Shown: positions 4,636-63,303, counted from the first letter of the stretch. The stretch is DNA of 64,000 bases from Candidatus Giovannonibacteria bacterium RIFCSPHIGHO2_01_FULL_45_24 (GCA_001778495.1 MFHE01000014.1:8409-72408), one strand, 5' to 3'. Made by a program: numbers and translations. Notes: generated by a model not told the origin, from the sequence alone.

Positions 4636-5256
4636 TCAAAAAGCAAAGCCCGTAATCAGCCGGAATAAAAACGCGGCGATGGGCAAAATTATGCCCGAGA
4701 GAAAAAATATGAAAACCACAAGGATAATAAGCCCGTATCTTTCAAAAAATATCTCCAAATCCGAAGCGCGCGACGGGAGCAAGGTGAAAAGAACTTTGGA
4801 GCCGTCCAGCGGAGGGATGGGTATAAGATTAAATATCGCCAAAATTAGATTAAGAAAAACAATAAATATGGCAATTTGCAAAAACTGCGGCGGCAAAGCC
4901 AGCGCGCCGGAGAAACGAATCAGCGCCCCGAAGACGAGGGCAACTATTATATTGGAAAGCGGCCCCGCCGCGCCAACCAAACCGGGGCCGTACTTTTGAT
5001 TTCTTAAATTGTAGGGATTATACGGCACCGGACGCGCCCAGCCGAAAATAAACCCGCCCAAAAGGTAGGTGATAGTGGGCAAAATCACCGAGCCGAAAGG
5101 GTCCAGATGTTTTAGGGGGTTGAGCGTCAATCTCCCTTCTTCTTTGGCAGTGTTGTCGCCCATCGCGTAGGCAACGGCGCCGTGGGAAATTTCGTGGATC
5201 ACCACGGAGAAAATCAAAATCAGAATTTGAAAAATAAATTCTACGGCTTGATTCAT
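4636..5256 (-). CDS. Site-2 protease (peptidase M50) family membrane metalloprotease
   Basis: 206 aa and polytopic. HEISHG (HExxH) sits in the first TM segment, and the second hydrophobic half contains the PIPPLDGS motif. Confidence 0.8.
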   Translation of the reverse strand: MNQAVEFIFQILILIFSVVIHEISHGAVAYAMGDNTAKEEGRLTLNPLKHLDPFGSVILPTITYLLGGFIFGWARPVPYNPYNLRNQKYGPGLVGAAGPLSNIIVALVFGALIRFSGALALPPQFLQIAIFIVFLNLILAIFNLIPIPPLDGSKVLFTLLPSRASDLEIFFERYGLIILVVFIFFLSGIILPIAAFLFRLITGFAF

Positions 5257-5303
5257 ATATAATATAATGCTAATCTACGAACGATATCCGAATATCACAA
5301 ATT

Positions 5304-5501
5304 ATGGCAAAAATTTGCGCGATTTGCAAAAAAGGGTCGGTAATAATGGGAACGCGGAGGCTGCTCCGCGGGCATTATAATCCGACAAAACGCTCCAGAA
5401 AATATCCCAACCTCCAGTGGGCGCGCTTGCCTGCGGGCGGCAGAATAAAAATTTGCACAAGATGCATGAAAGCAGGGAAGCATTTGAAAATGAAAGCTTA
5501 G
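5304..5501 (+). CDS. rpmB: 50S ribosomal protein L28
   Basis: 65 aa and basic. MAKICAICKKG...GHYNPTKRSRKYPNLQW matches the L28 pattern. Confidence 0.85.
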   Translation: MAKICAICKKGSVIMGTRRLLRGHYNPTKRSRKYPNLQWARLPAGGRIKICTRCMKAGKHLKMKA

Positions 5502-5575: not shown

Positions 5576-5696
5576 ATTTTTAACATCAATTCTTCCACGC
5601 AGGAAAGATGTATTAAAATCGCCTTTCCTCTCCGCTCAACGCTCAAAATTTTTCTCCCCAAAATCCGCTTCCTCCGGCAGTTCTGGCATAATTTTG

Positions 5697-5768
5697 CGTC
5701 CTCGCTGGGATTTGAACCCAGATTTTCGGCTCCGGAGGCCGACGCTCTGTCCGTTGAGCTACGAGGAC
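5697..5768 (-). tRNA. tRNA-Arg (anticodon CCG)
   Basis: Folded by hand. Acceptor GTCCTCG/CGAGGAC with discriminator G. D stem GCTC/GAGC. Anticodon arm TCGGC-CTCCGGA-GCCGA. T arm CTGGG-TTCAAAT-CCCAG. Confidence 0.9.
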
Positions 5769-5771
5769 ATT

Positions 5772-5796
5772 CACTTAGACGTCCGACGTCTAAGTG
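5772..5796. repeat. Palindromic hairpin repeat, copy 1 (CACTTAGACGT-CCG-ACGTCTAAGTG)
   Basis: Perfect 11-bp arms with a 3-nt loop. It lies 3 nt from the tRNA-Arg 5' end. It supplies the last codons and the TAG stop of the 5790..6284 ORF. Confidence 0.95.
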
Positions 5797-6284
5797 TGTC
5801 TATCAGCGACAGTTGACGCCCCGAAAGAATTGGGCTTGATTACGGCGTCAAAGCCGTAGCCCTTGACCATGCCAACGACGCCGTCTATGAATTCGCGCGT
5901 GGGGCCGTTTTCGCCCACATCAATGTGAATCTGGTCGTTCCAAAAAAATTCATCTCCCAATTTTTCTTTGAGGCGCCCGCGGAGCTCCTGCGCCAAAGTT
6001 ATGGAGCAGATTGTTTCTCTATAAATCCGTTCGCGGAGAGTATTGCAACGCGTTTTTTCGGAACGCGTCCAAAAATGAATTCCGCCGTTCCCTACCCGCC
6101 AGATTGTAACGGCGGTCACAAATTGCACCTCCGACCGCGCCGCCGAATCGGTCCCCACGATGATTTTGTACCGCCGAGACGGCTTTGATTTGACGAAATC
6201 GTAAATCGCCTGAACGACTTCTTCTAAACCAAGCTCCGCTCCCAATATGTTAAAAAATTTTGAGTTGGACATTTTTTTCTGCAT
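5790..6284 (-). CDS. YkuK/DUF458-like RNase H-fold protein
   Basis: 164 aa. YKIIVGTDS...VQFVTAVTIWRVGNGG...IHIDVGENG resembles the YkuK family as I remember it. No search was run. Confidence 0.55.
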   Translation of the reverse strand: MQKKMSNSKFFNILGAELGLEEVVQAIYDFVKSKPSRRYKIIVGTDSAARSEVQFVTAVTIWRVGNGGIHFWTRSEKTRCNTLRERIYRETICSITLAQELRGRLKEKLGDEFFWNDQIHIDVGENGPTREFIDGVVGMVKGYGFDAVIKPNSFGASTVADRHT

Positions 6285-6852
6285 CTAGCTTCTCCGGCTT
6301 ATTCCAAGCCACCGGTATCGCCACTTTGCCGCCGGCGTTTCTTGAATAAAAAAGCACGTGGCCGTTCTGCCTCCCGAAGTCGTAAAGGTTTTTTGTAATC
6401 TCCACGTCCTTCAGGCAGTATTTTTTAATTTCGCCCATTTTCCCTTCTTTATACCATTTCAGCGCCTGAAGTCCATCCCCCGACTTTCTGACGCCCAGCG
6501 TCGCGTCCGCCAAGCTGTCCAGATAAAGCCGGTGGCCGAGCGATTTTTTTATGTCGTCCATCAAGTCCAGCGCGGGCAAATTTTTCAAATTCCAGGAAAT
6601 GTAGGGCTGTAAAACCGCCAGATCAAAATGGCGGATATTAAAACCGACCACGCGGCCGGCTCTTTGCAGCAGCTTCTCAAACTCTGGAATTTCATGTTCC
6701 TCAAAAGTCAAGTATTGACCCAGCCCATAAACGTACGCGCCCACCACCGAAACTCCGAGTTTTCCGAAATTTTCTCCATCTCTCGCGGAAATCCCGGCCT
6801 CATTGAAAGAACGCTTGGTTTCAATATCAAAAACAACGTCGTCCGAGTCCAT
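6250..6852 (-). CDS. DEDD-type 3'-5' exonuclease, RNase H-like superfamily (YprB-like)
   Basis: Exo motifs VVFDIET, GFNIRHFDLAVL and KYCLKDVEIT. I place the start at the internal MDSDD (6852), which abuts the DoxX stop. The track ORF extends to 6897. Confidence 0.7.
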   Translation of the reverse strand: MDSDDVVFDIETKRSFNEAGISARDGENFGKLGVSVVGAYVYGLGQYLTFEEHEIPEFEKLLQRAGRVVGFNIRHFDLAVLQPYISWNLKNLPALDLMDDIKKSLGHRLYLDSLADATLGVRKSGDGLQALKWYKEGKMGEIKKYCLKDVEITKNLYDFGRQNGHVLFYSRNAGGKVAIPVAWNKPEKLDAEKNVQLKIF

Positions 6853-7463: not shown

Positions 7464-8267
7464 ATGAACAAGGATGTCATGTGGCTGATATTTGTGCTTA
7501 TAATAGTGGGCATTGTTTTCGGTTTCCAGAGAAAAAATATAAATCTGTTCTCGCAAACTCCTTCCGGAAACGTAAATCAAACAACTCCGGCAAAAACCCC
7601 GCCTGCCACGACTCCAGCGCCAGCGCCAGCGCCAACGCCCGCTACGGCAAAGCCGCCCGCACTGCGATTAGGCCTCGGGCAGGTTTATTCCACCCAGCCA
7701 GCGCAGGAATACATTGTCTTGGAACACTTTGATTTTGATAATAAGCAAGCAATCAGCATCTCCGGCATGAAACTTCAAAATCGCGACCGCGTTTCCGGGA
7801 CCGTTGGCAAAAACGAATACGGCGGGGATATTTATCTCAATTACGGAGAGCGCGCTGCAATCGTGACCGGCGAAAGCCCGCTCGGAAAAAATTTCAAACT
7901 GAATAAATGCTCTGGATATTTCAACCAGAACAATTCCCTGCCGGTTTACACGTCCTGCCCGTCACTTTCCGACTTGCCGCAGCCAAGGAATCTAAATAAT
8001 AAATGCATCCAATACATAGAAAGTCTGCCGAATTGCGCCGTGCCCAACATCAACGCCGATACGGGGATTGATAATACCTGCGCAGAATTCGTAATCCAGC
8101 ACGCAAGCTATGTGGGATGCGTCGCCGACCACAAAAACGACACCGATTTTGACCAGCGCCACTGGCTCATTTACCTCGGCAAAAACGCCGAGATGTGGGG
8201 AAGCCGCCGCGACCTCATCCAGCTCTTTGACCAGCTGGGGAAATTGATTGCGGAAATTAGTTACTAA
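7464..8267 (+). CDS. Membrane-anchored or secreted Cys-containing protein with a P/A/T-rich linker, possibly a lamin-tail-like domain
   Basis: N-terminal TM segment, a TPPATTPAPAPAPTPATAKPP linker, EYIVLEHFDF...ISISGMKLQN, and 7 cysteines in the C-terminal half. Confidence 0.6.
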   Translation: MNKDVMWLIFVLIIVGIVFGFQRKNINLFSQTPSGNVNQTTPAKTPPATTPAPAPAPTPATAKPPALRLGLGQVYSTQPAQEYIVLEHFDFDNKQAISISGMKLQNRDRVSGTVGKNEYGGDIYLNYGERAAIVTGESPLGKNFKLNKCSGYFNQNNSLPVYTSCPSLSDLPQPRNLNNKCIQYIESLPNCAVPNINADTGIDNTCAEFVIQHASYVGCVADHKNDTDFDQRHWLIYLGKNAEMWGSRRDLIQLFDQLGKLIAEISY

Positions 8268-8736
8268 GCTCCCAAAGCGCGATGCCGGCCACCACCGAAA
8301 CATTCAGCGATTCCTTTTTGCCGCGCATGGGGATTTCTATAATTGCACCTGATTTTTTTAGAATGCTTTTTGAAATCCCGCGCACCTCGTTGCCCAAAAT
8401 CAGCGCGATGCCCGACTTGGAAGTCCGGCTTCCAAGTGAAAATTTATTAAGATTCAGCGACTTTTTTGACTGCTCCAAGGCGATAATCTGAATTTTTTCC
8501 AGTTTCAAACATTTTATTAAATTAAAAATATTTTTTTGCTTCTCCCATCTCACATATTTTTCCGCGCCCAGCGCGGTTTTTTGAAAATCCTTGCGTAATT
8601 TCCCAAAAATATCGTATGGCTCCGGCGTGTATCCGGTCAAATATATTTTCTTAACGCCCAACCCTTCCGCGGTGCGAAAAATTGAGCCGACGTTGTGCAA
8701 GCTCCGGATATTATGCAAAACAAGAGAAATTTCCAT
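8257..8736 (-). CDS. SpoU/TrmH-family RNA 2'-O-methyltransferase
   Basis: 159 aa. Contains HNVGSIFRTAEGLG, LILGNEVRGIS and ESLNVSVVAGIALWE motifs. Confidence 0.85.
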   Translation of the reverse strand: MEISLVLHNIRSLHNVGSIFRTAEGLGVKKIYLTGYTPEPYDIFGKLRKDFQKTALGAEKYVRWEKQKNIFNLIKCLKLEKIQIIALEQSKKSLNLNKFSLGSRTSKSGIALILGNEVRGISKSILKKSGAIIEIPMRGKKESLNVSVVAGIALWELSN

Positions 8737-14000: not shown

Positions 14001-14026
14001 CAGACCCACGATTAATCGTGGGTCTG
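14001..14026 (-). terminator. Perfect 26-nt palindrome between convergent genes (CAGACCCACGAT-TA-ATCGTGGGTCTG)
   Basis: Read directly. A T-run (GTTTTTAC) follows it only on the minus strand, so it best fits a terminator for 14043..14588. Confidence 0.7.
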
Positions 14027-19752: not shown

Positions 19753-20667
19753 TCATTCAGCGTTTATCCTAGCCACAAGACTCGCAAATCCTAGCTCCTC
19801 AAAAAGGGCTTTTAATTTTGATTTATTTACTTGAAAATTGGAAATTGGAAATCGGAAATTAACCGGCGCATCTCGGCGGATTGTGGCCAGTGTCTTTGAA
19901 AAAAACGCGTCTTTTTTATGCTCCTTCAGCAACTGGACTGTTTTTTCTTTTAAACCACCAACGGCCACGCCGGCCGCGTTGGCGGGGCTGCCCTCTTCTA
20001 ATTTTTGATACAAATTTTCCAGCGTGCCGAAATTTTTAATAATCTCCGTAGCGATTTTTTCGCCAATTCCTTTAACGCCCACGATGTTATCCGACGGGTC
20101 ACCCCTTAATCCCTTAAAATCAGGCAGCATCCCCGGGCCGAAGCCGTATCTTTCTTCAACTTTCTTTTCGTCATAAATCACCGTATCTTCAATCCCTTTT
20201 CGCAAAGTAAAGACAACAACTCTGTCCCCATCCACTAGCTGCAAAACGTCCATATCGCCGGAGACGATAATTGTTTTCAATCCGCCAGTTGGCGGATTTC
20301 GGCGAAGCGCCTCGACAATCGTCCCCAAAACATCGTCCGCTTCAAACCCCGGGGCGTCTAAAATCGGGATGCCGAAAGCTTCAACAATGTCTCTGGCGCG
20401 AATAAGCTGCTTCACCAAATCTTCTTCCGCCTCCGGCCGCTTGGCTTTGTAGCCGTCGTAAGTGTCGTGCCGAAAGGTCGGCTCCGGCCTGTCAAAAGCC
20501 GCGACAATATAATCGGGTTTCAGTTCGCGGATAATTTTGAGCAGCATCGCGGACAATCCATATAGCGCCCCGGTCGGCTCGCCGGTATTTTTTGACGTGA
20601 ATTTCGGCAACGCGTGATACGCGCGGTGAATCAAGGCGTGAGTATCTAATAAAACAAGGGTTTTCAT
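19753..20667 (-). CDS. Stand-alone 5'-3' exonuclease (Pol I N-terminal / FEN family)
   Basis: 304 aa. LLDTHALIHRAYHAL, EADDVLGT, DNIVGVKGIGEK. Confidence 0.88.
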   Translation of the reverse strand: MKTLVLLDTHALIHRAYHALPKFTSKNTGEPTGALYGLSAMLLKIIRELKPDYIVAAFDRPEPTFRHDTYDGYKAKRPEAEEDLVKQLIRARDIVEAFGIPILDAPGFEADDVLGTIVEALRRNPPTGGLKTIIVSGDMDVLQLVDGDRVVVFTLRKGIEDTVIYDEKKVEERYGFGPGMLPDFKGLRGDPSDNIVGVKGIGEKIATEIIKNFGTLENLYQKLEEGSPANAAGVAVGGLKEKTVQLLKEHKKDAFFSKTLATIRRDAPVNFRFPISNFQVNKSKLKALFEELGFASLVARINAE

Positions 20668-21139: not shown

Positions 21140-21167
21140 TTAGGGGCATCCGTCTGGATGCCCCTAA
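21140..21167 (-). terminator. Hairpin TTAGGGGCATCC-GTCT-GGATGCCCCTAA downstream of 21185..21610
   Basis: Perfect 12-bp stem with a 4-nt loop, read directly. It lies between two minus-strand genes. Confidence 0.6.
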
Positions 21168-25707: not shown

Positions 25708-25971
25708 TTGAAACATATGGCAAACGCGCCCATCATAGGCTTAAAAGACCTAAGGGAAAACATGGAAGAATACATAAACAAGGTCAAGCGGGGCAGGGAG
25801 TTTACCGTTATCCGCAAATCGGAGCCGGTTTTCAAAATAACGCCGGTAGATATGTGGGGAGACGATGGAGTATGGGAAATCATAGCAGACTTTCGTGAAC
25901 TTAACGAAAAAGGAACCCCGGCGCGGGATGTGTTGCGAGCTCTCCAGAAAAATAATGGATCGCATCGCTAA
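25708..25971 (+). CDS. Type II antitoxin, Phd/YefM-like
   Basis: 87 aa. The N-terminus IGLKDLRENMEEYINKVKRGREFTVIRKSEPVFKI fits the Phd/YefM pattern. It overlaps the toxin start by 17 nt. Confidence 0.65.
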   Translation: MKHMANAPIIGLKDLRENMEEYINKVKRGREFTVIRKSEPVFKITPVDMWGDDGVWEIIADFRELNEKGTPARDVLRALQKNNGSHR

Positions 25972-26191
25972 ATCTTTAAACAAACTTCTTCCAAAAGAGA
26001 GAGATGCGCTCAAAAATATTATCTCCAAAGTTTTGGCGCATGACTTTTCGGGGCTAGACGTCAAAAAACTCAAGGGTGGAGAAAATAAATTCCGTGTCCG
26101 CAAAGGACGCGTTCGCGTAATCTTCAGAAAAGACGGCGATAAAATTTCTATTCTCTCCATCGAACGCCGCAGCGATACTACATATAAATAA
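25955..26191 (+). CDS. Type II toxin, RelE/ParE family
   Basis: KKLKGGENKFRVRKGRVRVIFRKDGDKISILSIERRSDTTY is the classic RelE/ParE C-terminal pattern. I place the start at the internal ATG 25955. Confidence 0.7.
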   Translation: MDRIAKSLNKLLPKERDALKNIISKVLAHDFSGLDVKKLKGGENKFRVRKGRVRVIFRKDGDKISILSIERRSDTTYK

Positions 26192-26197
26192 AAAAGT

Positions 26198-26226
26198 GCC
26201 ACTTAGACGTCCGACGTCTAAGTGGC
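26198..26226. repeat. Palindromic hairpin repeat, copy 2 (GCCACTTAGACGT-CCG-ACGTCTAAGTGGC)
   Basis: Perfect 13-bp arms between convergent genes. A T-run follows on the minus strand (CTTTTTATTT), so it could terminate 26234..26488. Confidence 0.95.
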
Positions 26227-26233
26227 TAGAAGG

Positions 26234-26488
26234 TCATTCGAGCTGGTCTTTTTGAAAATAACAGGAAATCTCTACAAAAATCCAGGAGAGAAATACGGAG
26301 GGCAGCATTATTACAAAAACAAACAGCAGTACCCTGAAGTCAACGATCTCTTTTGTTAACAAGCCCAAATTGCCACTGCCGATATTAATGTGGCCAGCAT
26401 ATCCTTGCATCCAATCTGGATATTTTGTAAAAAAATATAGCAAATCCATCAAAAGCAAAAAACACGGCAATCCGAGTCTCTTAATCAT
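26234..26488 (-). CDS. Small membrane protein (84 aa), hypothetical
   Basis: Two hydrophobic segments. No family recognised. Confidence 0.4.
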   Translation of the reverse strand: MIKRLGLPCFLLLMDLLYFFTKYPDWMQGYAGHINIGSGNLGLLTKEIVDFRVLLFVFVIMLPSVFLSWIFVEISCYFQKDQLE

Positions 26489-42853: not shown

Positions 42854-43519
42854 TTATGTTACGCGTTGCGTGATTTCGGGCGGCTTGCCTTTTTCTGATT
42901 CCCCCGGATTATAAAGCTCGTAAAATAATTCTATCAGCTCCTCGGTGTTGAGCGGTACCGCCCTGATGCCGGCGCGAACGAGCCCCTGGATTACGCTGTC
43001 CGCCCTTTGCCAGAGCTGGTTTTTGTATTCCTCAAATTTTTCCTGCGGCATGACTTTCGCCCGCCCGCCCGCGCCGCTTCCGCTAAAGAACCCCAGAAGT
43101 TTTTTTACTCCTTCTTTCGGCGTTTCAAATATCGGCGGGGGGAAAGGAACGACCGCGTAGAAATTTTTTGTGACAACGTTTGCGGCTCGGACGAAGGCGC
43201 GCACGAATTCTATGTATTCGGCTATCTGGATTTTGAGAAGCTCGTTGGACTGCCTTGCCTCGGCGGCTTTTAGGGTTTCAATGTAGGGCTCAATGTTAAG
43301 TTTGCGCGACTGGATGAAAAATTGCACGGAAAAATCCATCGCGTTCAAAAAATTCTGGTATTGCAAAATTATCGCCGTCTGCTCATCGGCGCTCTTCAGG
43401 GCGAAATTCAGCGACGAGGCCATAAGCACCGCCCGGAGCGAGCCGTCTTTTAAGAGCAGGACGCCGTCCCTGATTTCCTGTATGTCCAATATTTCCTGCG
43501 ATGCTTGCGCTTGAGCCAT
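42854..43519 (-). CDS. Hypothetical 221-aa protein resembling a stand-alone VirB4 N-terminal-type domain
   Basis: ILDIQEIRDGVLLLKDGSLRAVLMASSLNFALKSADEQTAIILQYQNFLNAMDFSVQFFIQSRK follows the N-terminal pattern of monoderm VirB4 homologues as I remember it. No P-loop. Confidence 0.45.
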   Translation of the reverse strand: MAQAQASQEILDIQEIRDGVLLLKDGSLRAVLMASSLNFALKSADEQTAIILQYQNFLNAMDFSVQFFIQSRKLNIEPYIETLKAAEARQSNELLKIQIAEYIEFVRAFVRAANVVTKNFYAVVPFPPPIFETPKEGVKKLLGFFSGSGAGGRAKVMPQEKFEEYKNQLWQRADSVIQGLVRAGIRAVPLNTEELIELFYELYNPGESEKGKPPEITQRVT

Positions 43520-43520
43520 T

Positions 43521-43931
43521 TTATCTTTTTATCTTTTCCTGTATGTCCAGCGACCAGGACAGGTCTTGTAATTTGCTTTGGGTAAGCCTCGGTCCCGTTA
43601 GAGGCAGGCCGCCTTTGGCGGCCGCCGCCGACTCTTGTCGGCGGGCCTCTAACGGGATTTTCCTCCATAGATAAAGACGGGAGGAAGATGCGAAATTAAG
43701 CGCGCTTCCGAGCACTTTAATAAACGGCTGGCCGTTTATTTTTAAAAACGCGAGCGCTCCCGCGAAAGCCGCCACCGGCGCGCCCAAAAGGATTACCAGC
43801 CAAAGCTGAAAGTAAATATACATCAAAAAGATGAGCGCCGCGCCGCCCAGGACGTAAAAAAACTGCTTTGCGGTTAGGGGCCCGAAAATCTTATCTTCTA
43901 TATCTATAAATTGCGGAACTTGGTGCTGCAT
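43521..43931 (-). CDS. PrgI-family (VirB3-like) membrane protein
   Basis: VPQFIDIEDKIFGPLTAKQFFYVLGGAALIF followed by two TM helices. It lies immediately upstream of the VirB4 pair. Confidence 0.7.
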   Translation of the reverse strand: MQHQVPQFIDIEDKIFGPLTAKQFFYVLGGAALIFLMYIYFQLWLVILLGAPVAAFAGALAFLKINGQPFIKVLGSALNFASSSRLYLWRKIPLEARRQESAAAAKGGLPLTGPRLTQSKLQDLSWSLDIQEKIKR

Positions 43932-43932
43932 A

Positions 43933-44532
43933 TTATTCTATTTGTTCCCTATAAGGGTCCTTTTCGTATTGCGGTCCTTGCTTGAGCGCCGGGGCGTTTA
44001 ACTCTTTCTCCAGCGCGCTCTTGGCGGCAAGGTGGTTTGGCGGCAGTGATTCCGGTTTCTGCGGGATAATATCCGGTACGACCTTCGCGGATTCCCCGAC
44101 GGGCGGAGGGATGTTTTTTACGAAAATTGAAGGGATTTCCCCAATTTCCGGTTTTATCTCCGGCGGTTTAGGTGGCGGCTTAATGTCTTCGCGCGTTGGG
44201 AGTGGTTTTTGCGCGCCAAGCCCATGAATTCTCTTCAGCGATTCCCGCACCGGCTGGAAAACTTTTTGATTGATTTCTTCCGCAATCGCCCGCGCTTTCT
44301 CCGGCGCGACTCCAAGCCGGCTCGTCAGATTTTTCACGTATTCCGAAGGCGGGGTAATTCCGAGCATCACCCGCCCGGTTTCTTGCGCAAGCTCCCCGAC
44401 TTTGTCTATCATCAGTCCGTATTTTTTCCCGGCTTCTTTAATTGCCTCCGCGGTTGCCGGAGCAAAAAGCGCCTTGCGGAGATTTTCCGGCAGGTCCGAG
44501 ACTCTTTCCAATATATCTTTTTGGTCTGCCAT
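43933..44532 (-). CDS. Hypothetical cytoplasmic protein with a Pro-rich C-terminal half (199 aa)
   Basis: No TM segment. Contains a KPPPKPPEIKPEIGEIP tract. 1-nt gap to the PrgI-like gene. Confidence 0.5.
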   Translation of the reverse strand: MADQKDILERVSDLPENLRKALFAPATAEAIKEAGKKYGLMIDKVGELAQETGRVMLGITPPSEYVKNLTSRLGVAPEKARAIAEEINQKVFQPVRESLKRIHGLGAQKPLPTREDIKPPPKPPEIKPEIGEIPSIFVKNIPPPVGESAKVVPDIIPQKPESLPPNHLAAKSALEKELNAPALKQGPQYEKDPYREQIE

Positions 44533-44557
44533 AATTTTATTTCATCATTAATTTTAA

Positions 44558-47500
44558 TTAAGGGGTTTTTGAGGGTATCGGCGGCGGCTTGCCTTCTAAT
44601 ATGCTTTCAATAACGTCTCTATACGGAGACCCGACGTAATTCCGCAGTTCTTGGGCCACCATATTGTTATTTCTAGCCTGCATTGCCGTTGCAAGAGCGT
44701 CTGCTCTTTCTTGCGGCGTAGTCTTTTTACCTATAATCCCCTCAAACCCCTCTTTAAACGCCGCGGCTCGCCTTGCGTCCCCAGTGATTAGCGAAATGTC
44801 CTCAATGGTCGCGCCGGCGAGCATGTCCTCAACGAATTCTTTTTGTTTAATAATTTCCGGAGACAAGTTCCTGCGCATCGCTTTGGCATCAACTTTGGTC
44901 AGATGGGAAACCAAAGCTCTTTGGTAATTGGCATACCCTGCCGGGTTTGCCCTGTAATCTGCGTAAGCCACCCCTTCTACGTTTTCTACGTATGCTCTGG
45001 GGGTAAGGAAGGTGCCGTACTTTGATTGCAGGTTGCGCTTTGATATGTTCCCGCCGAGCTTTTTGGCCCTTTCGTGCTTATCTGCGTCTGCGCTTGCAGC
45101 AAGGATGTTAATAACTCGCGCGACTTTGTTTTCATCGCCCACCTTGGTCAAAATGTCCAAATCTTCATCAGACATCAGTGACACGTCAACTTCAAGGTCA
45201 TCTGCTTTCTTTTGACTGACATTTTTGACGGCGGCTTCGCGATACGAACGATATTCTCCGGCGCTGAAGCGGGTTTTAATTATCCCCTCGGCGGCGTCGG
45301 CCGCGCCCGCGTTCCAGGCGGCCTGCTGGGCCGGGGTTAATGACGGAGCTATCGCGGTTGACGGCGCTTTTCTGAATCCGGCGATGAATCTTGCGCGGGC
45401 ATCGTCGTCTTTTAGTTTGCGAAGCAGCGCTTCCCTGCCGTCGTCATTGGCGTCAAGATGCGCCTTTCTTTGCTCGTCTTCTGATTTGCGCAAGACGCCG
45501 GCGACTTTGATATCCTGCTGTTCTTTTGGAGTAAATCGTCTGCGGATAACGCTTTCCGCTGAATCGCGCGCGAGAGCGCCTGGAGCGCCGAGCGAGTCCG
45601 CAAATTCGGCCCTGTCTTCGTCGCTCTTCATTTTGCGAAGCAGCGCCTCCTTGTCATCATCCGTGAAATTTGGCTGGGACCAAGCAGCAACCCGCTCGCT
45701 TTTGGGTTTTTGCATAATTCTGGCAATGCGGAAGTTCTGCGCGTCTTTGGGCGAGAAGCGCGAATTGATTAACGCCTCCGCGTTTGCGGCTAAAGCCGGA
45801 TTGGTCAGCGCGAACCCGTCCACAAGAGCCGCCCTTTCTTCGTCGCTCATCCCGCGGAGCGCCTGCTCTGTGGCGTTCAAATTGCCAGTCGTCAGATATC
45901 CGGCCATCTGCGCTTGCTGCTGCGGCAAGGTCATCCGCTTCCATCCCTCGGCGTCGTATGCCGCCGCGGCGGTTGGCGGAACCTGCCTCTTGAGGAATGT
46001 CTCGGCGGAGGCGCGATCGGCTGGCGACATAAACTTCATCATCTCCTGCTGTTCAGCAGGAGTCATTTTGTTCAAAAGAGAACTCTTTTCCTGATTGTTA
46101 AGCCCGGCATAATATCTGGCCTGCCGGTCGGGCGTTAGTTTTTTGGCGAAATCGGCCATCGCTTCCGCTCTTTTTTCCGCTCCGCCCAGACCGCGGAGCC
46201 ACCCGGCGAACGCGGTCGGAGCCGTGCCCAAAATCGGGAATCTCGCCTGCATCTTCGCCGCCGCCGGCGTTATCGCCGTCCCCACGACCCCCGTAGTATA
46301 CCTCGCCGCCACCGCCCCCACCGCCCCCGTGAGCCATTTTCTGCTTGCGGTTGCCCACCCAAGGACAGACCCCGCAAAATATACTCCCATTGTGCGGGCG
46401 ATCAAAAGTGAGGAAATTAGCAATACAACTACGGTAAATATGTCAACCCAAAACGCGAAATCTTGTGTTATGTTGCCGCCAACCGCATTTCGCGCCATAG
46501 CGTTGGCTATGGAAACACTGATATATAAAAGAAACATAAAAGCTGGAAAGAAAAATGAATGCATAATTAGCTTTTCCCACCAAGTATGCCAGTGTTTTTC
46601 CGTCGTCGGTAATATGTAAAACAAAAACGCTAAGGGCGCTAGCACTAATAGTATTGCTAATATAGCAAAACGAATGATCATCAAAATCCCGCCGAACACA
46701 AATACAAAGATGAGCGGGAGAGAAACTATAAGCGCGGACATAACTAGATAAAAATAATCTATTGCCGATTTCACATCACCGATATTGCTTAATTTGGCCC
46801 AGCTAACTCCTACGGCCGCCCCGCTAAGTATCGCTGCGGCAAGGCCAATGGCGCCCGGGCAAAAAATTCCCGTTGCGCAGCCGGCCGCAATAATGCCACC
46901 CGCCAGAAGTCCTCCTATGTTGCCCCATAGCGCGCCGCTTCTGACATAAGACCCTTGATCGATGTCGCTTGTGTCAAATATTTTTTGAAATCTGGCCCCG
47001 GCAATTAAAGATTGAGATATAGGCATGCTCCCGTTTTTAGTAAGCACGTTCCAAAACTGCCGCCCTAAGATATTGGCAGAGTCAATGACTATGTAACTAA
47101 TTGTTAAGCTAAAGTTAATAAGCAATGCTATGGTAATAAGTTTTACCAGTAATGCTTTGGCATTATGGCTTTGGATCCGTAAGATTGTAGCTATAGCAAT
47201 AGCCAGAAGTATTAGTATAAAAAATAAGTTGGCCACATCGCGCGATATTTTCCAGCCCTCCTGAATTGCTACTAAATTATTAAATCCGCTTAAAGCCGCA
47301 TTGCGAATTGTCAAGTCGAAGAAACTGCCCGCTAACGATACAAATTTAGTAACGGTGAGCAGTACCGCTGTCAAAATTGTATTAAGCCCCCATAAAAACG
47401 CGCTTCCAAGACTGAAAGCGCCCTCCGCTTTTTGCATAAGCACTTTTTCGTCCCCCGCTTTGATTGGCGCGGAAGGATTGTCTGCCGCCAATGCCAAAGG

Positions 47501-47584
47501 CGCGGCCAGAAAATTAAACGCCATGCTCAATAAAATTATTGAAACGAGCGGGATTTGGAATTTTTTGTAGGTTTCAAGTTTCAT
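44558..47584 (-). CDS. Giant polytopic membrane protein, VirB6/TrbL-like N-terminal half plus a ~350-aa repeat-containing C-terminal domain
   Basis: 1008 aa. Signal-like N-terminus, about 8 TM segments across residues 60-410, then soluble repeats (..RF(S/T)P....EALLRK(M/L)K.D..RA.F..). Confidence 0.55.
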   Translation of the reverse strand: MKLETYKKFQIPLVSIILLSMAFNFLAAPLALAADNPSAPIKAGDEKVLMQKAEGAFSLGSAFLWGLNTILTAVLLTVTKFVSLAGSFFDLTIRNAALSGFNNLVAIQEGWKISRDVANLFFILILLAIAIATILRIQSHNAKALLVKLITIALLINFSLTISYIVIDSANILGRQFWNVLTKNGSMPISQSLIAGARFQKIFDTSDIDQGSYVRSGALWGNIGGLLAGGIIAAGCATGIFCPGAIGLAAAILSGAAVGVSWAKLSNIGDVKSAIDYFYLVMSALIVSLPLIFVFVFGGILMIIRFAILAILLVLAPLAFLFYILPTTEKHWHTWWEKLIMHSFFFPAFMFLLYISVSIANAMARNAVGGNITQDFAFWVDIFTVVVLLISSLLIARTMGVYFAGSVLGWATASRKWLTGAVGAVAARYTTGVVGTAITPAAAKMQARFPILGTAPTAFAGWLRGLGGAEKRAEAMADFAKKLTPDRQARYYAGLNNQEKSSLLNKMTPAEQQEMMKFMSPADRASAETFLKRQVPPTAAAAYDAEGWKRMTLPQQQAQMAGYLTTGNLNATEQALRGMSDEERAALVDGFALTNPALAANAEALINSRFSPKDAQNFRIARIMQKPKSERVAAWSQPNFTDDDKEALLRKMKSDEDRAEFADSLGAPGALARDSAESVIRRRFTPKEQQDIKVAGVLRKSEDEQRKAHLDANDDGREALLRKLKDDDARARFIAGFRKAPSTAIAPSLTPAQQAAWNAGAADAAEGIIKTRFSAGEYRSYREAAVKNVSQKKADDLEVDVSLMSDEDLDILTKVGDENKVARVINILAASADADKHERAKKLGGNISKRNLQSKYGTFLTPRAYVENVEGVAYADYRANPAGYANYQRALVSHLTKVDAKAMRRNLSPEIIKQKEFVEDMLAGATIEDISLITGDARRAAAFKEGFEGIIGKKTTPQERADALATAMQARNNNMVAQELRNYVGSPYRDVIESILEGKPPPIPSKTP

Positions 47585-47601
47585 GTTTCGGGTTTTGTGA
47601 T

Positions 47602-49014
47602 TTATGGAGCGGGCGGAGCCAGGCAGGCGGCCAAATCGTCCTCGGCCTTTTTCTTGTCGGCGGCGATTCCGGCGTTTTCGGACTGGGCGACGCTTAAGCT
47701 CGCCGTCCTGGAAACGTCGGATTGGGTTTTGGTGAAGGCGTCCTGGAACTCTTTTACCGTCTCGGCAAGCTGCATCGCCAGCTTGTCGTCTTTTAGAATT
47801 TCTTTGAAAATGGTTTGCTCCACAATTTCATTTTCAATCCTCAACTTGGTCGTGGTCGCCGTTGATATCTGGTTGTCAACCTCCGCTAACGGCTCGCTTT
47901 TGAGCTGCTTGCAGGCGCGGAGACTTTGAAGGATTGTGATTTCGTCGGTTACGAGCGCCAGAGAATTTTCTTTCGTTGTGATAACGCTTTCGGTCAGCAA
48001 AATCGCTTCGTCCACGTGCGAGACGATAATCCCGTTTTCCTTTATAGAATCCAAATCCTGCTGGGTGCCGATTCCGCTGATGTCCGCCGAGCGGAGCCCT
48101 CCCTGCTGGAAGAAGAGATTTTGAAGCAGTGCCTGGAGCGACGCCATAAGTATCTCATTAAACGAATCGGCGAGGTTCAGCTGTTTAATGTCCGCGGTCG
48201 TGGCCTCCCCGAGCCGGTTTTCAAGCCACGCGCCCGGGCTTACGGTTTGGCAGCGTTTTTTTGTTTCGGGCTCGTCATAACCGCCGTCGGCTTCTATTAG
48301 CACGTCTTCACATTCTTCAAGATTCAAAAATCCGCGCGCGGCGAGCGCCTCGTTGAGTTTCGCCTCCACGGCGATTGTCTGCCGTTTTTCGTTTTCTTCC
48401 AAAAGCCCCAGATACGCCCCGTAAGGATTATTCTGCACCTCGGTGAGCTGTATCCAAGTTGCCCAGCCGCCGCTGTTGAAATCGTTGAAAAAATTCTGCA
48501 AATTCCCGGCGACGGCTGAAACCGTGCAGCGGAAGCGGTCCTGCATTGACCTTCTGCCGGTGTTGAAAATTATTCTAAGTTGGGGCGCGAATGGCTCGCA
48601 GAGCCGCGTGAGGTTGAGCTCTTTTAAAAACACCCCGCTTGCCTGGTCGGCCGCGTCCAAAAGAAAATCCGACCAGTTGGTCACAAAAAGCGGCGAGCCG
48701 CTTTGCCCCCCAGTGCGGATTAAATTTACTATCTGGTCGGTCATGTGCTTTACGAGCACCTTGGCGAATACCCAAAACATCTGGTTGACCAAATCTTTTT
48801 CGGTTCCGGCTCTTTCCTGAACTTTATCTATAGGCACGGAATCTTTTCTCAAAAGGTCTAAAGCGCCGCCTAAAAAATCGCTTATCTTAAATCCTGTTTG
48901 GATTTCCGTCGCTGGCGCGACGTCCTCGGCAACCGCGAAACCCGGCAATATTAAGCCCGCCCCGAGGGCTCCGCTTAAGAAAACTATAAATATTTTTTGT
49001 GCGAAAAATTTCAT
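47602..49014 (-). CDS. Secreted 470-aa hypothetical protein
   Basis: Signal peptide MKFFAQKIFIVFLSGALGAGLILPGFAVA. 6 Cys. Coiled-coil-like C-terminus. No family recognised. Confidence 0.55.
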   Translation of the reverse strand: MKFFAQKIFIVFLSGALGAGLILPGFAVAEDVAPATEIQTGFKISDFLGGALDLLRKDSVPIDKVQERAGTEKDLVNQMFWVFAKVLVKHMTDQIVNLIRTGGQSGSPLFVTNWSDFLLDAADQASGVFLKELNLTRLCEPFAPQLRIIFNTGRRSMQDRFRCTVSAVAGNLQNFFNDFNSGGWATWIQLTEVQNNPYGAYLGLLEENEKRQTIAVEAKLNEALAARGFLNLEECEDVLIEADGGYDEPETKKRCQTVSPGAWLENRLGEATTADIKQLNLADSFNEILMASLQALLQNLFFQQGGLRSADISGIGTQQDLDSIKENGIIVSHVDEAILLTESVITTKENSLALVTDEITILQSLRACKQLKSEPLAEVDNQISTATTTKLRIENEIVEQTIFKEILKDDKLAMQLAETVKEFQDAFTKTQSDVSRTASLSVAQSENAGIAADKKKAEDDLAACLAPPAP

Positions 49015-50039
49015 TCTGCGCCGTATTTTATAAAATGCCCCCCGCCCTCCGTCAGCGAAAAGACCATGCCGCCAGCTTTAATCTGCTTCGCCATTGATTT
49101 ATAAAACGCCGAAAGACGGTTAACCTGGTTTAAATACACTGAAAGCCCGGCCAGCCCCCGCACAGGGTCTTTTTCCGAATACTGCATGTCGCGGACGGCA
49201 AGAGAGATGTTGTAAAAAGTATTCATCAGTTCAAGGTGCAGCGACGCATATTTCCCGGGCGCCTTCTTGGTTTTTAAGAAGTCAATTGTTTTCTGGTATG
49301 CCTTGACGTAGTCTGCAAACTTTTCCAGCTCTTTGAAATTGTTTGTTGTCATGGCGCGGTTTAGAATATTGATTTCCGCCTCGCCGAGTCCGGAGAAAGT
49401 TTTTTCAATGAAGGCCCCGGCGTCGTTTAGGTATTTTTTCGTAAAATCGGCCGAGGCGCCGTTTTCAATAAATATGTCTTTATCGGAGAATTTGTCGCTC
49501 GTCGGAAGCGTCGCGCCTGCCAAGGATTCCAAGAGCGATTCAGAAATGGCGCGTTTTTGAAAATCATCCAGCTCCCCGCCCGCTCCGCCCAAGGCCGAAA
49601 GGTACTCAACGGCGAATTTTTGGGCTATGCGCTCGGTAAGCGTTTGAGGCGTGGAGGTCGCCTCCCGCGCTTTTGCTTCCTCTGGGGCCCTGGACTTGTC
49701 GCTCCATTCTCCGTTTTTTAATTTGTATCCCGCAATCAGAGGGTCCCTGCCTTCCCGCGCCTCCTCGCCGTCGTCAGCGCCGTCTTTATCCGTGTCCGGG
49801 TTATTTATATCCGTTTTCCAGAGGATTTCTTCCCAATCCTTGAGCGCGTCTCCGTCCGAGTCGCGGGTCGCTTCCTTGTAAGCCGCGAGGAACGAGATTT
49901 GAGCGGATTTTTGGATGTTTTTTGCCGCCGGTGAAGGGACATTCCATATCCGGAGCGAGAGCCAGCCGGAAAATATCGCCACCAAGATAGCGGAAACAAG
50001 GGCTATGAAGTTTTTTGACGGAAGATAGCCCATTACCAC
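49011..50039 (-). CDS. Membrane-anchored protein with a thrombospondin-type-3-like acidic Ca-binding motif
   Basis: N-terminal TM segment. DSDGDALKDWEEILWKTDINNPDTDKDGADDGEE. 4-nt overlap with the downstream gene. Confidence 0.5.
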   Translation of the reverse strand: MVMGYLPSKNFIALVSAILVAIFSGWLSLRIWNVPSPAAKNIQKSAQISFLAAYKEATRDSDGDALKDWEEILWKTDINNPDTDKDGADDGEEAREGRDPLIAGYKLKNGEWSDKSRAPEEAKAREATSTPQTLTERIAQKFAVEYLSALGGAGGELDDFQKRAISESLLESLAGATLPTSDKFSDKDIFIENGASADFTKKYLNDAGAFIEKTFSGLGEAEINILNRAMTTNNFKELEKFADYVKAYQKTIDFLKTKKAPGKYASLHLELMNTFYNISLAVRDMQYSEKDPVRGLAGLSVYLNQVNRLSAFYKSMAKQIKAGGMVFSLTEGGGHFIKYGAE

Positions 50040-50066: not shown

Positions 50067-50834
50067 TTAGGGTGTGGATATGGCCGGAACCGGCTCCGGA
50101 CCGGTGCCGATGCGGATTATGGGGTAAGCCGAGCCTAAAGACGGCGGGTCGTCGCCGAAATCTATGCCTAAAAGGCCAAAAATAAAGGAAGCAATGCTGA
50201 TTATTGGACCTATGACAGGGATAAACAGCGCGGCTAGACTAAGCCCAGCGCCCAAAAAGTTGCCGCTAATAAGCGAGCTTATAATTCCTATGCCTGGCAA
50301 AAACCAGCCTAATCCTTCAGCTAGACCGGCCAATTGTATGCCCAAGTCGCCTCCTATAAAGAGCGCTCCTCCTGGCCCTACAATTTCCACGCCGACTATT
50401 TGTGACCCAAATATTGACCCCGGCTCAAGCATTTCCATGGTGACAGGGCTTATCTCCAAAAGGCCGCCGCTTACCGCGGAATCCAACAGGCCCCCCATGC
50501 TGAATCCGTCAATGGCTGACGGATTTCCCTCCGAACAATTAACGGGATTGGGCGAAGCGCTGCCCAACGTCCAGACTTTGGGCTCAATTACGCCGTACCT
50601 ATGGATGATTGTGGTTGCCGGATCCAGAAAAAATTTGCCGCCCGCTGGCGGGCCGATGTGTAAGACAAAGCCGGGCGGAGTTTTGCAGGCCTGGATTTTT
50701 GTGATTTTGCCTCCGAAGGGTTTGTTTAGCCGTAGGTCGGCGGGGTTTATCGCGGCGGACGCGGTTACCGGGTAAAAGGAAATAAGCGATGCTATGCCCG
50801 CCATAAATATTGCCAGTCGCCGCTTTAATTTCAT
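50067..50834 (-). CDS. Secreted protein with a glycine-rich hydrophobic C-terminal half, hypothetical
   Basis: Signal peptide ending in VTASA. The C-terminal ~110 aa are G/I/L/S-rich (GGALFIGGDLGIQLAGLAEGLGW...GLLGIDFG). Confidence 0.55.
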   Translation of the reverse strand: MKLKRRLAIFMAGIASLISFYPVTASAAINPADLRLNKPFGGKITKIQACKTPPGFVLHIGPPAGGKFFLDPATTIIHRYGVIEPKVWTLGSASPNPVNCSEGNPSAIDGFSMGGLLDSAVSGGLLEISPVTMEMLEPGSIFGSQIVGVEIVGPGGALFIGGDLGIQLAGLAEGLGWFLPGIGIISSLISGNFLGAGLSLAALFIPVIGPIISIASFIFGLLGIDFGDDPPSLGSAYPIIRIGTGPEPVPAISTP

Positions 50835-50837
50835 GTT

Positions 50838-51596
50838 TTAATTATACCCCAATATCTCCGACCAGTCTTTGAGTGAAAGATTTTCCGGGCGGGCATTTTG
50901 ATAGTTTTTCGGCAGCTTGATTTTTTTGCCGATTGAACTCCTTAGCATTTTGCGCTTTTGCTGGAAAGCCAGCTTTGCCAACGCAAGGATTCGCTCTGAC
51001 TTAGACGTCGGACGTCTAAGTGTGATTTTTATTATCGCTGAATCAACCTTCGGCGGAGGCGAGAAAAAATTTTTTGAGACGTAGCGGATTATTTCTGGTT
51101 TGGCGTATGCTTGCACGGAAAGCGCCAAAAGATTCATTTGCGGTGGCCTTGCGCAAATTCTTTCCGCGACTTCTTTTTGCACCATTAAAACCATGAGTTT
51201 TGGCCGAAACTTAGTTTCGGACAAAAACAGGCGTAAAAAACGCGAAGTTATGTAGTAGGGAATGTTGGCGACGATTTTATAAGACTTGGCGGTTAAACCG
51301 CCACTTGGCGGTTTAACCGCCTTAGCTAAAATATCTCCTTGGATAATCTCCATGTTTTTGTAATCTTTGAATTTTTCGCGCAAAACCGGAATTAAGTCGC
51401 GGTCTTTTTCCGTGGCGATTACTTTCCCGGCGCGCGCGGCCAAGATTTCGGTGAGCGAGCCCGTTCCGGGACCGACTTCCAAAACAATATCTTTTTTTGA
51501 CAGCTCCGCCGCGCGCGCCATCTCCTCCAGGATTTTTTTGTTGTTCAAAAAATACTGCCCAAGCCGCCTTCTTTTACTCCACGATAATTTCCTCAT
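50838..51596 (-). CDS. rsmA: 16S rRNA (adenine1518/1519-N6)-dimethyltransferase
   Basis: LGQYFL, the SAM motif LEVGPGTGSLT, NIPYYITS, and FQQKRKML. Contains palindrome copy 3 in-frame. Confidence 0.92.
   Translation of the reverse strand: MRKLSWSKRRRLGQYFLNNKKILEEMARAAELSKKDIVLEVGPGTGSLTEILAARAGKVIATEKDRDLIPVLREKFKDYKNMEIIQGDILAKAVKPPSGGLTAKSYKIVANIPYYITSRFLRLFLSETKFRPKLMVLMVQKEVAERICARPPQMNLLALSVQAYAKPEIIRYVSKNFFSPPPKVDSAIIKITLRRPTSKSERILALAKLAFQQKRKMLRSSIGKKIKLPKNYQNARPENLSLKDWSEILGYN
50999..51021. repeat. Palindromic hairpin repeat, copy 3 (ACTTAGACGT-CGG-ACGTCTAAGT), inside the rsmA CDS
   Basis: Perfect 10-bp arms. In inverted orientation relative to copies 1 and 2. Translated within RsmA as ..LRRPTSKS.. 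Confidence 0.95.
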
Positions 51597-62831: not shown

Positions 62832-62858
62832 AACCCCCTCTTACCCTAAGAGGGGGTT
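62832..62858. repeat. Hairpin repeat family 2, copy A (AACCCCCTCTTA-CCC-TAAGAGGGGGTT)
   Basis: Perfect 12-bp stem with a 3-nt loop. Confidence 0.9.
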
Positions 62859-62866
62859 CTGGTTGT

Positions 62867-62889
62867 TTCCCTCTTAAAGTAAGAGGGAA
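62867..62889. repeat. Hairpin repeat family 2, copy B (TTCCCTCTTA-AAG-TAAGAGGGAA)
   Basis: Perfect 10-bp stem. It lies 11 nt downstream of the DUF559 stop. Confidence 0.9.
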
Positions 62890-62900
62890 TAATGGAGTTA

Positions 62901-63266
62901 TTATTCAATTATTTTTAATTTACTTTTTATTTTCTCCAGTACCGCCTCAGTATTTTTCAGTACATCAGTATTCCAAAATCTTATCACTTTTATGTCTTTG
63001 TCGCGCAAATAACTGGTTCTTTCGCGGTCATAAATTTTTTGATCAGTTTCCGTGTGCCCACCGCCGTCTAGTTCAATAGCCAATCGCGAATCGGGACAGT
63101 AAAAATCCAAAATATAAGGTCCAACGCTATACTGTCTTAGAAATTTAATTCCATAGAATCTTTTATTGCGTAAGTATTTCCAAAGTAATCGTTCAGAATC
63201 TGTTTCAGATTTTCTAAGCTCTTTTCGTCGAGATTTTAGAGTTTGATTATTGTAAACAAATTTCAT
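62901..63266 (-). CDS. DUF559 (Vsr-like) endonuclease-domain protein
   Basis: SERLLWKYLRNKRFYGIKFLRQYSVGPYILDFYCPDSRLAIELDGGGH...IRFWNTDVL. Confidence 0.8.
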   Translation of the reverse strand: MKFVYNNQTLKSRRKELRKSETDSERLLWKYLRNKRFYGIKFLRQYSVGPYILDFYCPDSRLAIELDGGGHTETDQKIYDRERTSYLRDKDIKVIRFWNTDVLKNTEAVLEKIKSKLKIIE

Positions 63267-63280
63267 TCTTCGCTTCGGTT

Positions 63281-63303
63281 CCCCCTCTTAATGTAAGAGG
63301 GGG
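63281..63303. repeat. Hairpin repeat family 2, copy C (CCCCCTCTTA-ATG-TAAGAGGGGG)
   Basis: Perfect 10-bp stem. It lies 15 nt upstream of the DUF559 start. Confidence 0.9.

Follow-up and report, generated by a model that had tools for sequence, protein, structure and literature searches.

The window, by which we mean the whole 64-kb stretch of DNA analysed here, carries at 50838..51596 on the minus strand an intact rsmA gene, encoding a 16S rRNA adenine dimethyltransferase of 252 aa (Pfam RrnaAD 1.2e-51). A total of 7774 RsmA homologues were found, which assign the window to Candidatus Giovannonibacteria (CPR/Patescibacteria). Since every family-invariant residue is retained in the alignment (A1), this RsmA is probably functional. 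In its AF2 model (mean pLDDT 85.5), the segments encoded by hairpins of three families, designated A, B, and C, all fall in loops (residues 193-200, 126-131, and 92-104, respectively). The family A hairpin (50999..51021, ACTTAGACGTC-G-GACGTCTAAGT) is translated in frame as T-LRRPTSK-S (residues 192-200) and lies in the loop or linker between a strand at residues 186-193, the last of the methyltransferase domain, and a helix at residues 198-212, the first of the C-terminal domain. The ORF and the model thus agree with the initial annotation, which had placed an in-frame palindrome in the inter-domain linker.

The two other hairpins of rsmA are also in frame. That of family B (51204..51220, CCGAAACT-T-AGTTTCGG) is read SETKFR. 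That of family C is a doublet (51284..51323, GGCGGTTWAACCGCC x2) read as KAVKPPSGGLTAK in a disordered loop, where the pLDDT is below 50 at residues 98-102; its perfect arms of 16 nt span 51288-51321. The 3' unit of the doublet is the 23-mer AAGTGGCGGTTTAACCGCCAAGT, in which the 5' foot is altered from ACTT. The canonical family C sequence, ACTTGGCGGTTTAACCGCCAAGT, is present in the orthologues P0004, P0009, P0010, and P0013, and is missing from the rsmA genes of P0016 and P0008, where this stretch is shorter by 5 codons. P0016 contains yet another palindrome, TCCGCCAGCTGGCGGA, read as NPPAGG and nested in the middle of family B.

Exact matches to the family A core, CTTAGACGTNNNACGTCTAAG, occur three times in the window (5774-5794, 26202-26222, and 51000-51020), whereas 0.01 were predicted from shuffled sequences; the three copies of one 21-nt core that had been proposed from inspection of the DNA are therefore real. 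No further match was detected in the window, even when 3 mismatches were allowed. All six window occurrences of the half-site TTAGACGT belong to the three palindromes, and an uptake-signal-like role of the half-sites was rejected because solitary half-sites are absent outside the palindromes in the window. The perfect arms of copies 1, 2, and 3 are 12, 14, and 11 nt long, each pair enclosing one central base, which on the plus strand is C, C, and G, respectively. The G of copy 3 gives CCG on the sense (minus) strand of rsmA, so that this copy matches the other two. What is conserved is a 23-mer, A-CTTAGACGTC-S-GACGTCTAAG-T, in many cases widened to CA...TG. When the copies were folded as single-stranded DNA, energies of -8.7 to -14.9 kcal/mol were obtained with z values of -4.6 to -10.4 (copy 1: -10.9 kcal/mol, z = -5.9). 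A known RNA family was also rejected, since an Rfam search of the window and five multi-copy loci at gathering thresholds gave only tRNAs and rRNA.

Copy 1 (5772..5796, CACTTAGACGTC-C-GACGTCTAAGTG) lies between a YkuK-like ORF (5790..6284, minus strand; Pfam PF04308 RNaseH_like) and the tRNA-Arg(CCG) gene (5696..5768, minus strand). It ends 3 nt upstream of the tRNA 5' end and provides CAC ACT TAG, the final two codons and the stop of the ORF. Copy 2 (26198..26226, stem of 14 nt, GCCACTTAG...CTAAGTGGC) is located between two small convergent ORFs at 25895..26191 (plus strand) and 26234..26488 (minus strand), neither of which had a Pfam match. Both settings had been described correctly at the outset. 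On the minus strand a T-run follows the stem of copy 2, which has a terminator-like score there, and at least this copy probably doubles as a transcription terminator. Copies 1 and 3 do not show the pattern of a GC-rich stem with a T-run at a gene's 3' end, and a T-run is absent at the rsmA copy.

Each of the three copies has an orthologous copy in another species: copy 1 in L031, where the same end of the YkuK-like ORF is followed by a tRNA-like sequence (judged by eye), copy 2 in L013, in a matching convergent-gene setting, and copy 3 in L030. All three are therefore old, and no recent transposition was seen in the window, as all of its copies occupy sites common to other species. The window also contains a sister 23-mer, ACTTGGAAGTCCGGCTTCCAAGT (8415..8437), read in frame as SLGSRTSKS in a SpoU-family RNA methylase ORF (8257..8736, minus strand); close relatives of this sequence flank transposase genes of the kind described below in L054, L055, L060, and L133.

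Subsequently, the linker site of copy 3 was compared across RsmA orthologues. The inter-domain linker is the most variable region of RsmA in alignment A1. Identical 21 nt of family A are found there in the window, L030, P0004, and P0016, and orthologues on L030, L128, and L130 have the same 7 palindrome codons. Between the window, P0004, and P0016 these 7 codons are identical, whereas third-codon positions elsewhere in the gene are 56-69% identical. Other orthologues show a range of states. The linker of P0010 has family A with one substitution; that of P0008, ACTTGGACACTCGGTGTCCAAGT, lies in the same register, and three compensatory double changes separate it from family A; that of P0025 is a decayed 23-mer. 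P0009 carries a different 23-nt hairpin (TGTCAAAA-gttcgag-TTTTGACA) and P0005 two hairpins of the CCCCTCTTA...TAAGAGGGG family, which also flanks DUF559, while P0006 has a linker of equal length with unrelated residues and no palindrome. In distant orthologues such as P0013, the linker is GISDKFFKKNKINP, encoded by non-palindromic AT-rich DNA and 6 aa longer.

The initial annotation had raised the question whether copy 3 is an insertion of about 8 aa; a clean insertion is not what these comparisons show. A simple-insertion model was rejected because the canonical, palindrome-free linker is 6 aa longer rather than shorter (P0013), and it is also at odds with the equal length in P0006 and with the sister and decayed palindromes standing in register in P0008 and P0025. 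No clean empty site was found among the orthologues, in which copy-free linkers are of the same length, longer, or canonical. The rsmA copy is ancient, being common to orthologues only ~70% identical and conserved at the nucleotide level. The varied linker states indicate that copy 3 occupies a long-standing cassette position at which hairpins turn over, and that it is not an 8-aa insertion of recent date.

We then scanned 185,579 species genomes, one genome per species, with the 21-mer CTTAGACGTCNGACGTCTAAG. The motif is not confined to its three occurrences in the window, since 50 further exact copies were found in 43 loci. These came from ~14 MAGs, nearly all labelled CPR, with 1-10 exact copies per MAG: six MAGs of Giovannonibacteria or close relatives had 3-8 copies each, a Wolfebacteria MAG had 10, and further copies were found in Zambryskibacteria, Moraniibacteria, and Parcubacteria. 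A few of the MAGs were labelled Saccharibacteria or Bdellovibrionales, and no Rickettsia genome among the species scanned had family A. By crude ORF calls, one of which (window copy 1) is spurious, 31 of the 56 non-redundant copies lie within long ORFs; another 6 straddle an ORF end, and the remaining 19 are intergenic.

The hosts identified with Pfam were ArgRS, TsaD, TrmD (three genomes), a MurD-like ligase, Mpg (six genomes), a GT4 glycosyltransferase, a C39-like peptidase, and an LTD protein; RsmA and the transposase gene described below also carry family A in frame. The initial annotation had likened the palindrome to REP/RPE-type elements able to sit in frame, and its in-frame presence in many housekeeping genes bears this out. 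Family A copies were read as LRR[PR]TSK in 27 cases and as LDV[GR]RLS in 4, or roughly 12 to 3 when independent sites were counted; the third frame has a stop codon.

A candidate partner enzyme was found in related genomes. In L034, three family A copies within 700 bp (4661-4691, 5138-5166, and 5355-5381) bracket and interrupt a 214-aa ORF (4695..5339, minus strand): one lies 16 nt upstream of the start, one just past the stop, and the one at 5138-5166 is read in frame as QLRRPTSKL. The ORF matched Pfam Y1_Tnp (PF01797, IS200-like transposase) at 29.6 bits against a gathering cut-off of 23, and NCBIfam NF047646 (REP_Tyr_transpos) at 27.3 bits, below the equivalog cut-off of 80. Homologues 50-93% identical occur in L027, L042 (Wolfebacteria), L011, and L024 (Moraniibacteria), and in all five genomes family A flanks and interrupts the gene, hereafter called RAYT. 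The internal copy is located elsewhere in L011, downstream of the catalytic Tyr, and is read in the other open frame (LDVGRL) in L024; with both position and frame differing, the internal copies have originated, or been reset, on more than one occasion.

The HUH motif and the tyrosine (H79, H81, and Y139) are invariant, also in 41 homologues, in the forms PNH[YF]H for HUH and Y[VI]NLN or YIHRNP for the tyrosine. For P0121, a protein with 93% identity to that of L034, the AlphaFold model (mean pLDDT 78) had as its top Foldseek match in the PDB 4ER8_A (E = 3.2e-5, TM 0.55 on target), that is, E. coli TnpAREP bound to a REP hairpin, which ranked above the IS608 and ISDra2 TnpA. The hairpin-coded residues 66-72 form a low-confidence loop immediately before the HUH strand in this AF2 model. 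By sequence, a single-sequence RAYT search of the PDB gave no match, and a 7-sequence RAYT profile gave weak matches only (ISDra2, E = 0.03; 4ER8, E = 1.2).

In the one pair of loci compared for synteny, gene order to the left and right of RAYT matches between L034 and L027, the RAYT proteins being 93% identical and the neighbours ~50-85%; this fits a vertically inherited RAYT, unlike an IS. The homologues form at least 2,890 clusters at 90% identity, and those named in the sources are called 'transposase' or 'REP element-mobilizing transposase RayT'. The family A RAYTs are not monophyletic in a crude NJ tree. The cognate RAYT suggested by the initial annotation thus exists, flanked by family A, in five related CPR genomes; in the 64-kb window itself, tblastn and a profile HMM on six-frame ORFs gave nothing better than E = 1. 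The association of family A with RAYT accordingly rests on the related genomes.

The pairing of RAYT with hairpins was examined further in metagenomes. A scan with a 7-protein RAYT alignment returned 80 loci, 72 of which had a complete gene with flanks. At least two copies of one palindrome were present within the gene ±110 nt in 52 of the 72 loci, arranged upstream, inside, and downstream (18 loci), upstream and downstream (18), upstream and inside (12), inside and downstream (3), or as two downstream copies (1). The usual positions were about -40 to -60, +149 to +198, +428 to +459, and immediately after the stop. The palindrome sequence varies by locus, and closely related RAYTs have closely related palindromes. 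Among the 63 families recovered, at least 16 end in ACTT...AAGT, an undercount because the shortest copy per family was scored. An ACTT-N15-AAGT unit read in frame gives Leu-x5-Lys, which corresponds to the L-x-x-R-x-x-K stretch of constant length at internal site 1 in the 41 aligned homologues.

The other two rsmA hairpins have cognate RAYTs as well. In L025, a paralogous RAYT (32% identical) has the family B 17-mer, CCGAAACTTAGTTTCGG, on either side as well as within the gene, and in the complete genome CP066687.1 family B overlaps the 3' end of a RAYT (L131 6719-6735). The rsmA gene of CP066687.1 also bears family B (L044 10377-10393), and this genome has at least three RAYT paralogues, with a different hairpin for each. 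For family C, ACTTGGCGGTTTAACCGCCAAGT is found at the L061 RAYT upstream, twice inside, and downstream.

Taken together, these findings suggest, with a probability of about 0.8, that the palindrome is one family (A) of the REP-like hairpins of a REP–RAYT system in CPR/Patescibacteria. The partner would be a Y1 HUH tyrosine transposase of ~215 aa belonging to the IS200/RAYT superfamily. By analogy with E. coli TnpAREP and IS608 TnpA, RAYT is presumed to bind hairpins folded from single-stranded DNA, cutting and rejoining beside them, which would spread the hairpins and keep them uniform. On each strand, two of the three frames of the 23-mer ACTT-N15-AAGT are open, the commonest giving Leu-x5-Lys, so that copies landing in or replacing protein surface loops can persist. 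The rsmA copy would then be a loop cassette, replaced or decayed in other lineages, and the intergenic copies make up the tops of longer, locus-specific stems.

A stronger version of this proposal is that the 23-nt hairpins are length-preserving cassettes, in which RAYT cuts at the conserved feet, ACTT and AAGT, and the 15 nt between them are exchanged or copied anew in place. An active family would in that case overwrite loop sites, including two fixed sites in the RAYT gene, without ever shifting the frame. We regard this version as improbable. If true, it would amount to transposase-driven in-frame loop replacement in essential CPR genes, and the mechanism could be domesticated, for instance to let RAYT regulate itself or to cause pauses at domain boundaries.

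The hairpins might instead be mainly functional for the host, as terminators, as elements for RNA processing or stability, or as pause sites at domain boundaries, kept by purifying selection and with a secondary or historical link to the transposase. Indeed, the sequence is perfectly kept at orthologous sites while the flanks diverge, and this perfect conservation could reflect host function rather than transposase activity. Many intergenic copies have their stem lengthened by locus-specific complementary bases, by up to 9 extra pairs; copy 2 is terminator-like; copy 1 adjoins a stop codon and a tRNA 5' end; and RAYTs are considered domesticated genes (PMC5581495). However, one and the same hairpin turns up in settings unrelated to each other (loops of proteins, 5' regions, 3' ends, and the RAYT gene), the rsmA copy has no T-run, an RNA family match is absent, and decayed copies are present in P0010 and P0025. 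The P0008 variant, whose three compensatory double changes at the same rsmA site would speak for selection on the stem, is essentially the REP of different RAYTs (in L062 and L069), so that replacement by another family fits it as well as compensation in situ. On balance, a mainly host-functional origin appears rather unlikely.

It is very unlikely that the palindromes are the ends of autonomous IS200/IS605-type insertion sequences and the solitary copies remnants of their insertion, even though the protein belongs to Pfam Y1_Tnp, IS200/IS605 termini bear subterminal hairpins, and the homologues are annotated in the sources simply as 'transposase'. The flanking and internal copies are one perfect palindrome rather than distinct left and right ends, tnpB is not adjacent to the RAYT genes, and the synteny of L034 and L027 is unlike that of a moving IS; furthermore, solitary 23-mers stand in frame at orthologous positions of essential genes, and the best fold match is TnpAREP. 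A double-stranded site for a dimeric DNA-binding protein (an operator, parS/matS-like site, or SOS box), to which the low copy number per genome, the perfect dyad kept across species, and a conserved copy near the 5' end of the repair gene mpg might point, was dropped as extremely unlikely, because the locus-specific complementary stem extensions point to a hairpin and not a duplex, dozens of sister palindromes are each paired with their own Y1 transposase, and the mpg copy is inside the CDS and not in the promoter.

The REP–RAYT reading can be set against known systems. REP–RAYT systems are well described (PMC2817692, PMC3116915, PMC5581495, PMC8266576). As in these, a Y1 HUH gene is flanked here by cognate hairpins that are also dispersed in the genome, several paralogues per genome have their own repeats, and the gene is syntenic between species. 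On the other hand, the classical REP foot GT[AG]G/C[TC]AC (GTAG/GTGG guide) is replaced here by ACTT/AAGT in family A and many sister families, without the guide tetranucleotide; classical REPs are extragenic and number tens to hundreds per genome, whereas here there are 1-10 exact copies per MAG, about half of them intragenic. The units here are also perfect 23-nt palindromes with loops of 1-5 nt, the protein motifs are PNH[YF]H, FQG, and Y[VI]NLN compared with the published NH[IFV]H, WQ, and YIxNNP, and the hosts are CPR bacteria, a clade that does not appear in the RAYT papers searched.

The nearest known group is subclass 2.4 of TnpAREP, for which Quentin et al. (2018, PMC6006769) describe 'double foot' REPs as well as in-frame REPs within tnpAREP itself; this TnpAY1 subclass is the same as Group 4 in Bertels et al. 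2017 (PMC5581495). Our system has in-frame internal copies and symmetrical feet. Its internal copies, however, precede the HuH motif or follow the Y motif, where the published description has them between the two, and its key motifs also differ from that description. Intragenic REPs have been listed, many of them in replication and repair genes, and some Rickettsia RPEs (RPE-4 and RPE-6) are CGTC REPs without a dedicated transposase (Di Nocera et al. 2013, PMC3733652). In contrast to the CGTC REPs, each family here has a cognate RAYT.

Like the hairpins described here, RPEs (Ogata et al. 2000) are palindromes in frame in loops or linkers of conserved housekeeping proteins, and RPEs as well as intragenic REPs occur in hosts with small, reduced genomes. 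RPEs differ in their Rickettsia hosts, whereas our 23-nt units are found in CPR bacteria. RPE-1 elements are ~100-150 bp long. With IS200/IS605 elements (IS608 and ISDra2 TnpA) the system shares the Y1 HUH fold and, presumably, recognition of hairpins on single-stranded DNA; it differs in the absence of tnpB, the identical ends, the syntenic and apparently single-copy location, and the solitary hairpins that far outnumber the transposase genes. Palindromic repeats with coding potential were reportedly found in Methanocaldococcus jannaschii by Suyama et al. in 2005. They resemble ours as short palindromes in frame in protein-coding genes, with an archaeal host and a different sequence. To our knowledge, a transposase partner has never been described for them.

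Our literature search found no paper joining RAYT with CPR/Patescibacteria. REPs within genes, RAYT genes among them, have been published before; the new points are the CPR clade, the feet (ACTT/AAGT), a uniform length of 23 nt, the small number of copies, and the large share of them that is intragenic. The system has the core properties of REP–RAYT, namely a TnpAREP-like Y1 HUH enzyme, its own dispersed and flanking hairpin, and paralogue-specific families. Four classical properties are lacking: the GTAG foot, an extragenic location, a high copy number, and an equivalog-level NCBIfam score.

The genomes of CPR/Patescibacteria are among the smallest and most streamlined of bacterial genomes. 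Even so, the genome studied here tolerates several transposase-linked hairpin families in essential genes, three of them in rsmA alone, and trmD, argS, tsaD, and mpg are other essential hosts of hairpins. The finding joins two phenomena that are usually handled apart: RPE-type palindromes in frame and REP–RAYT, which is normally extragenic. We know of no enzyme for the in-frame insertion of RPE-type elements in Rickettsia. The uniform ACTT-N15-AAGT format, together with dozens of co-varying RAYT/hairpin pairs, constitutes a natural specificity series for the reading of hairpins by Y1 enzymes. Finally, hairpin segments explain many of the short variable 'L-x5-K'-like inserts in alignments of CPR proteins, and they may break assemblies.

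Twelve perfect palindromes with a stem of at least 10 nt were found in the window, whereas 0.65 were expected. Besides the copy of family A, the 23-nt REP-like hairpin with ACTT...AAGT feet, in the rsmA linker, five more of the perfect palindromes of the window lay in frame within housekeeping or conserved ORFs. These were located in the genes for a SpoU methylase (8415-8437, read as SLGSRTSKS), a 5'-3' exonuclease (20279-20298, NPPTGGL), TsaE (21140-21167, LGASRRMPLN), and a PrgI-like protein (43719-43740, KINGQPFI), and in the ORF downstream of rsmA (50503-50525, NPSAIDGF). The NPPTGG-type palindrome was also present in rsmA of the orthologues P0016 and P0025, and the PrgI-type palindrome was found again inside a called PrgI-family gene of a related genome (L044, 17788-17809). 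An intergenic, perfect 26-nt palindrome without a loop, CAGACCCACGATTAATCGTGGGTCTG, was observed at 14001-14026 and had no relation to the ACTT...AAGT families.

The PrgI-like ORF (43521..43931) lies within the region of approximately 43500-50000 of the window noted for a gene cluster. Large ORFs without annotation form a conserved cluster downstream of rsmA in related genomes (L044 and L130), and this cluster includes PrgI-, TraC-like, and TraG/VirB4-like P-loop genes, a set resembling type IV secretion or conjugation systems.

In the mpg orthologues of five loci (L006, L009, L020, L036, and L043), the unpaired central base of the family A hairpin was either C or G at the same orthologous site, which was read as LRRPTSK or LRRRTSK depending on this base; the flip suggests that the hairpin was inverted or re-copied in the opposite orientation. 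In trmD of two genomes (L022, ~6470-6490; L025, ~730-750), a related second palindrome, AAGACGTCGGACGTCTT, stood beside family A, and the two formed tandem hairpins in frame, while a degenerate second palindrome, AAGACATCCGACGTCTT, adjoined the family A copy in argS of L001. As for the REP-associated transposase (RAYT), the protein was 93% identical between two Giovannonibacteria species (L034 and L027), whereas the syntenic neighbour genes were approximately 50-85% identical; therefore, the transposase is more strongly constrained than its neighbours.

A palindrome family different from family A was found at 62832-63303, on both sides of an ORF for a DUF559/Vsr-like endonuclease (62901..63266, minus strand; PF04480, E = 4e-34), with CCCCCTCTTAATGTAAGAGGGGG upstream and TTCCCTCTTAAAGTAAGAGGGAA and AACCCCCTCTTACCCTAAGAGGGGGTT downstream. 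The only other DUF559 gene among the loci examined (L031, 2777-3106) likewise had a palindrome, CCCCTCCTTATTAAGGAGGGG, 55 nt upstream. Furthermore, a DUF559-type hairpin was translated in the rsmA linker of another orthologue, P0005, as PLTLRGK/PLKVRGA. The palindromes flanking DUF559 may represent a second hairpin family, the partner of which is not a RAYT.
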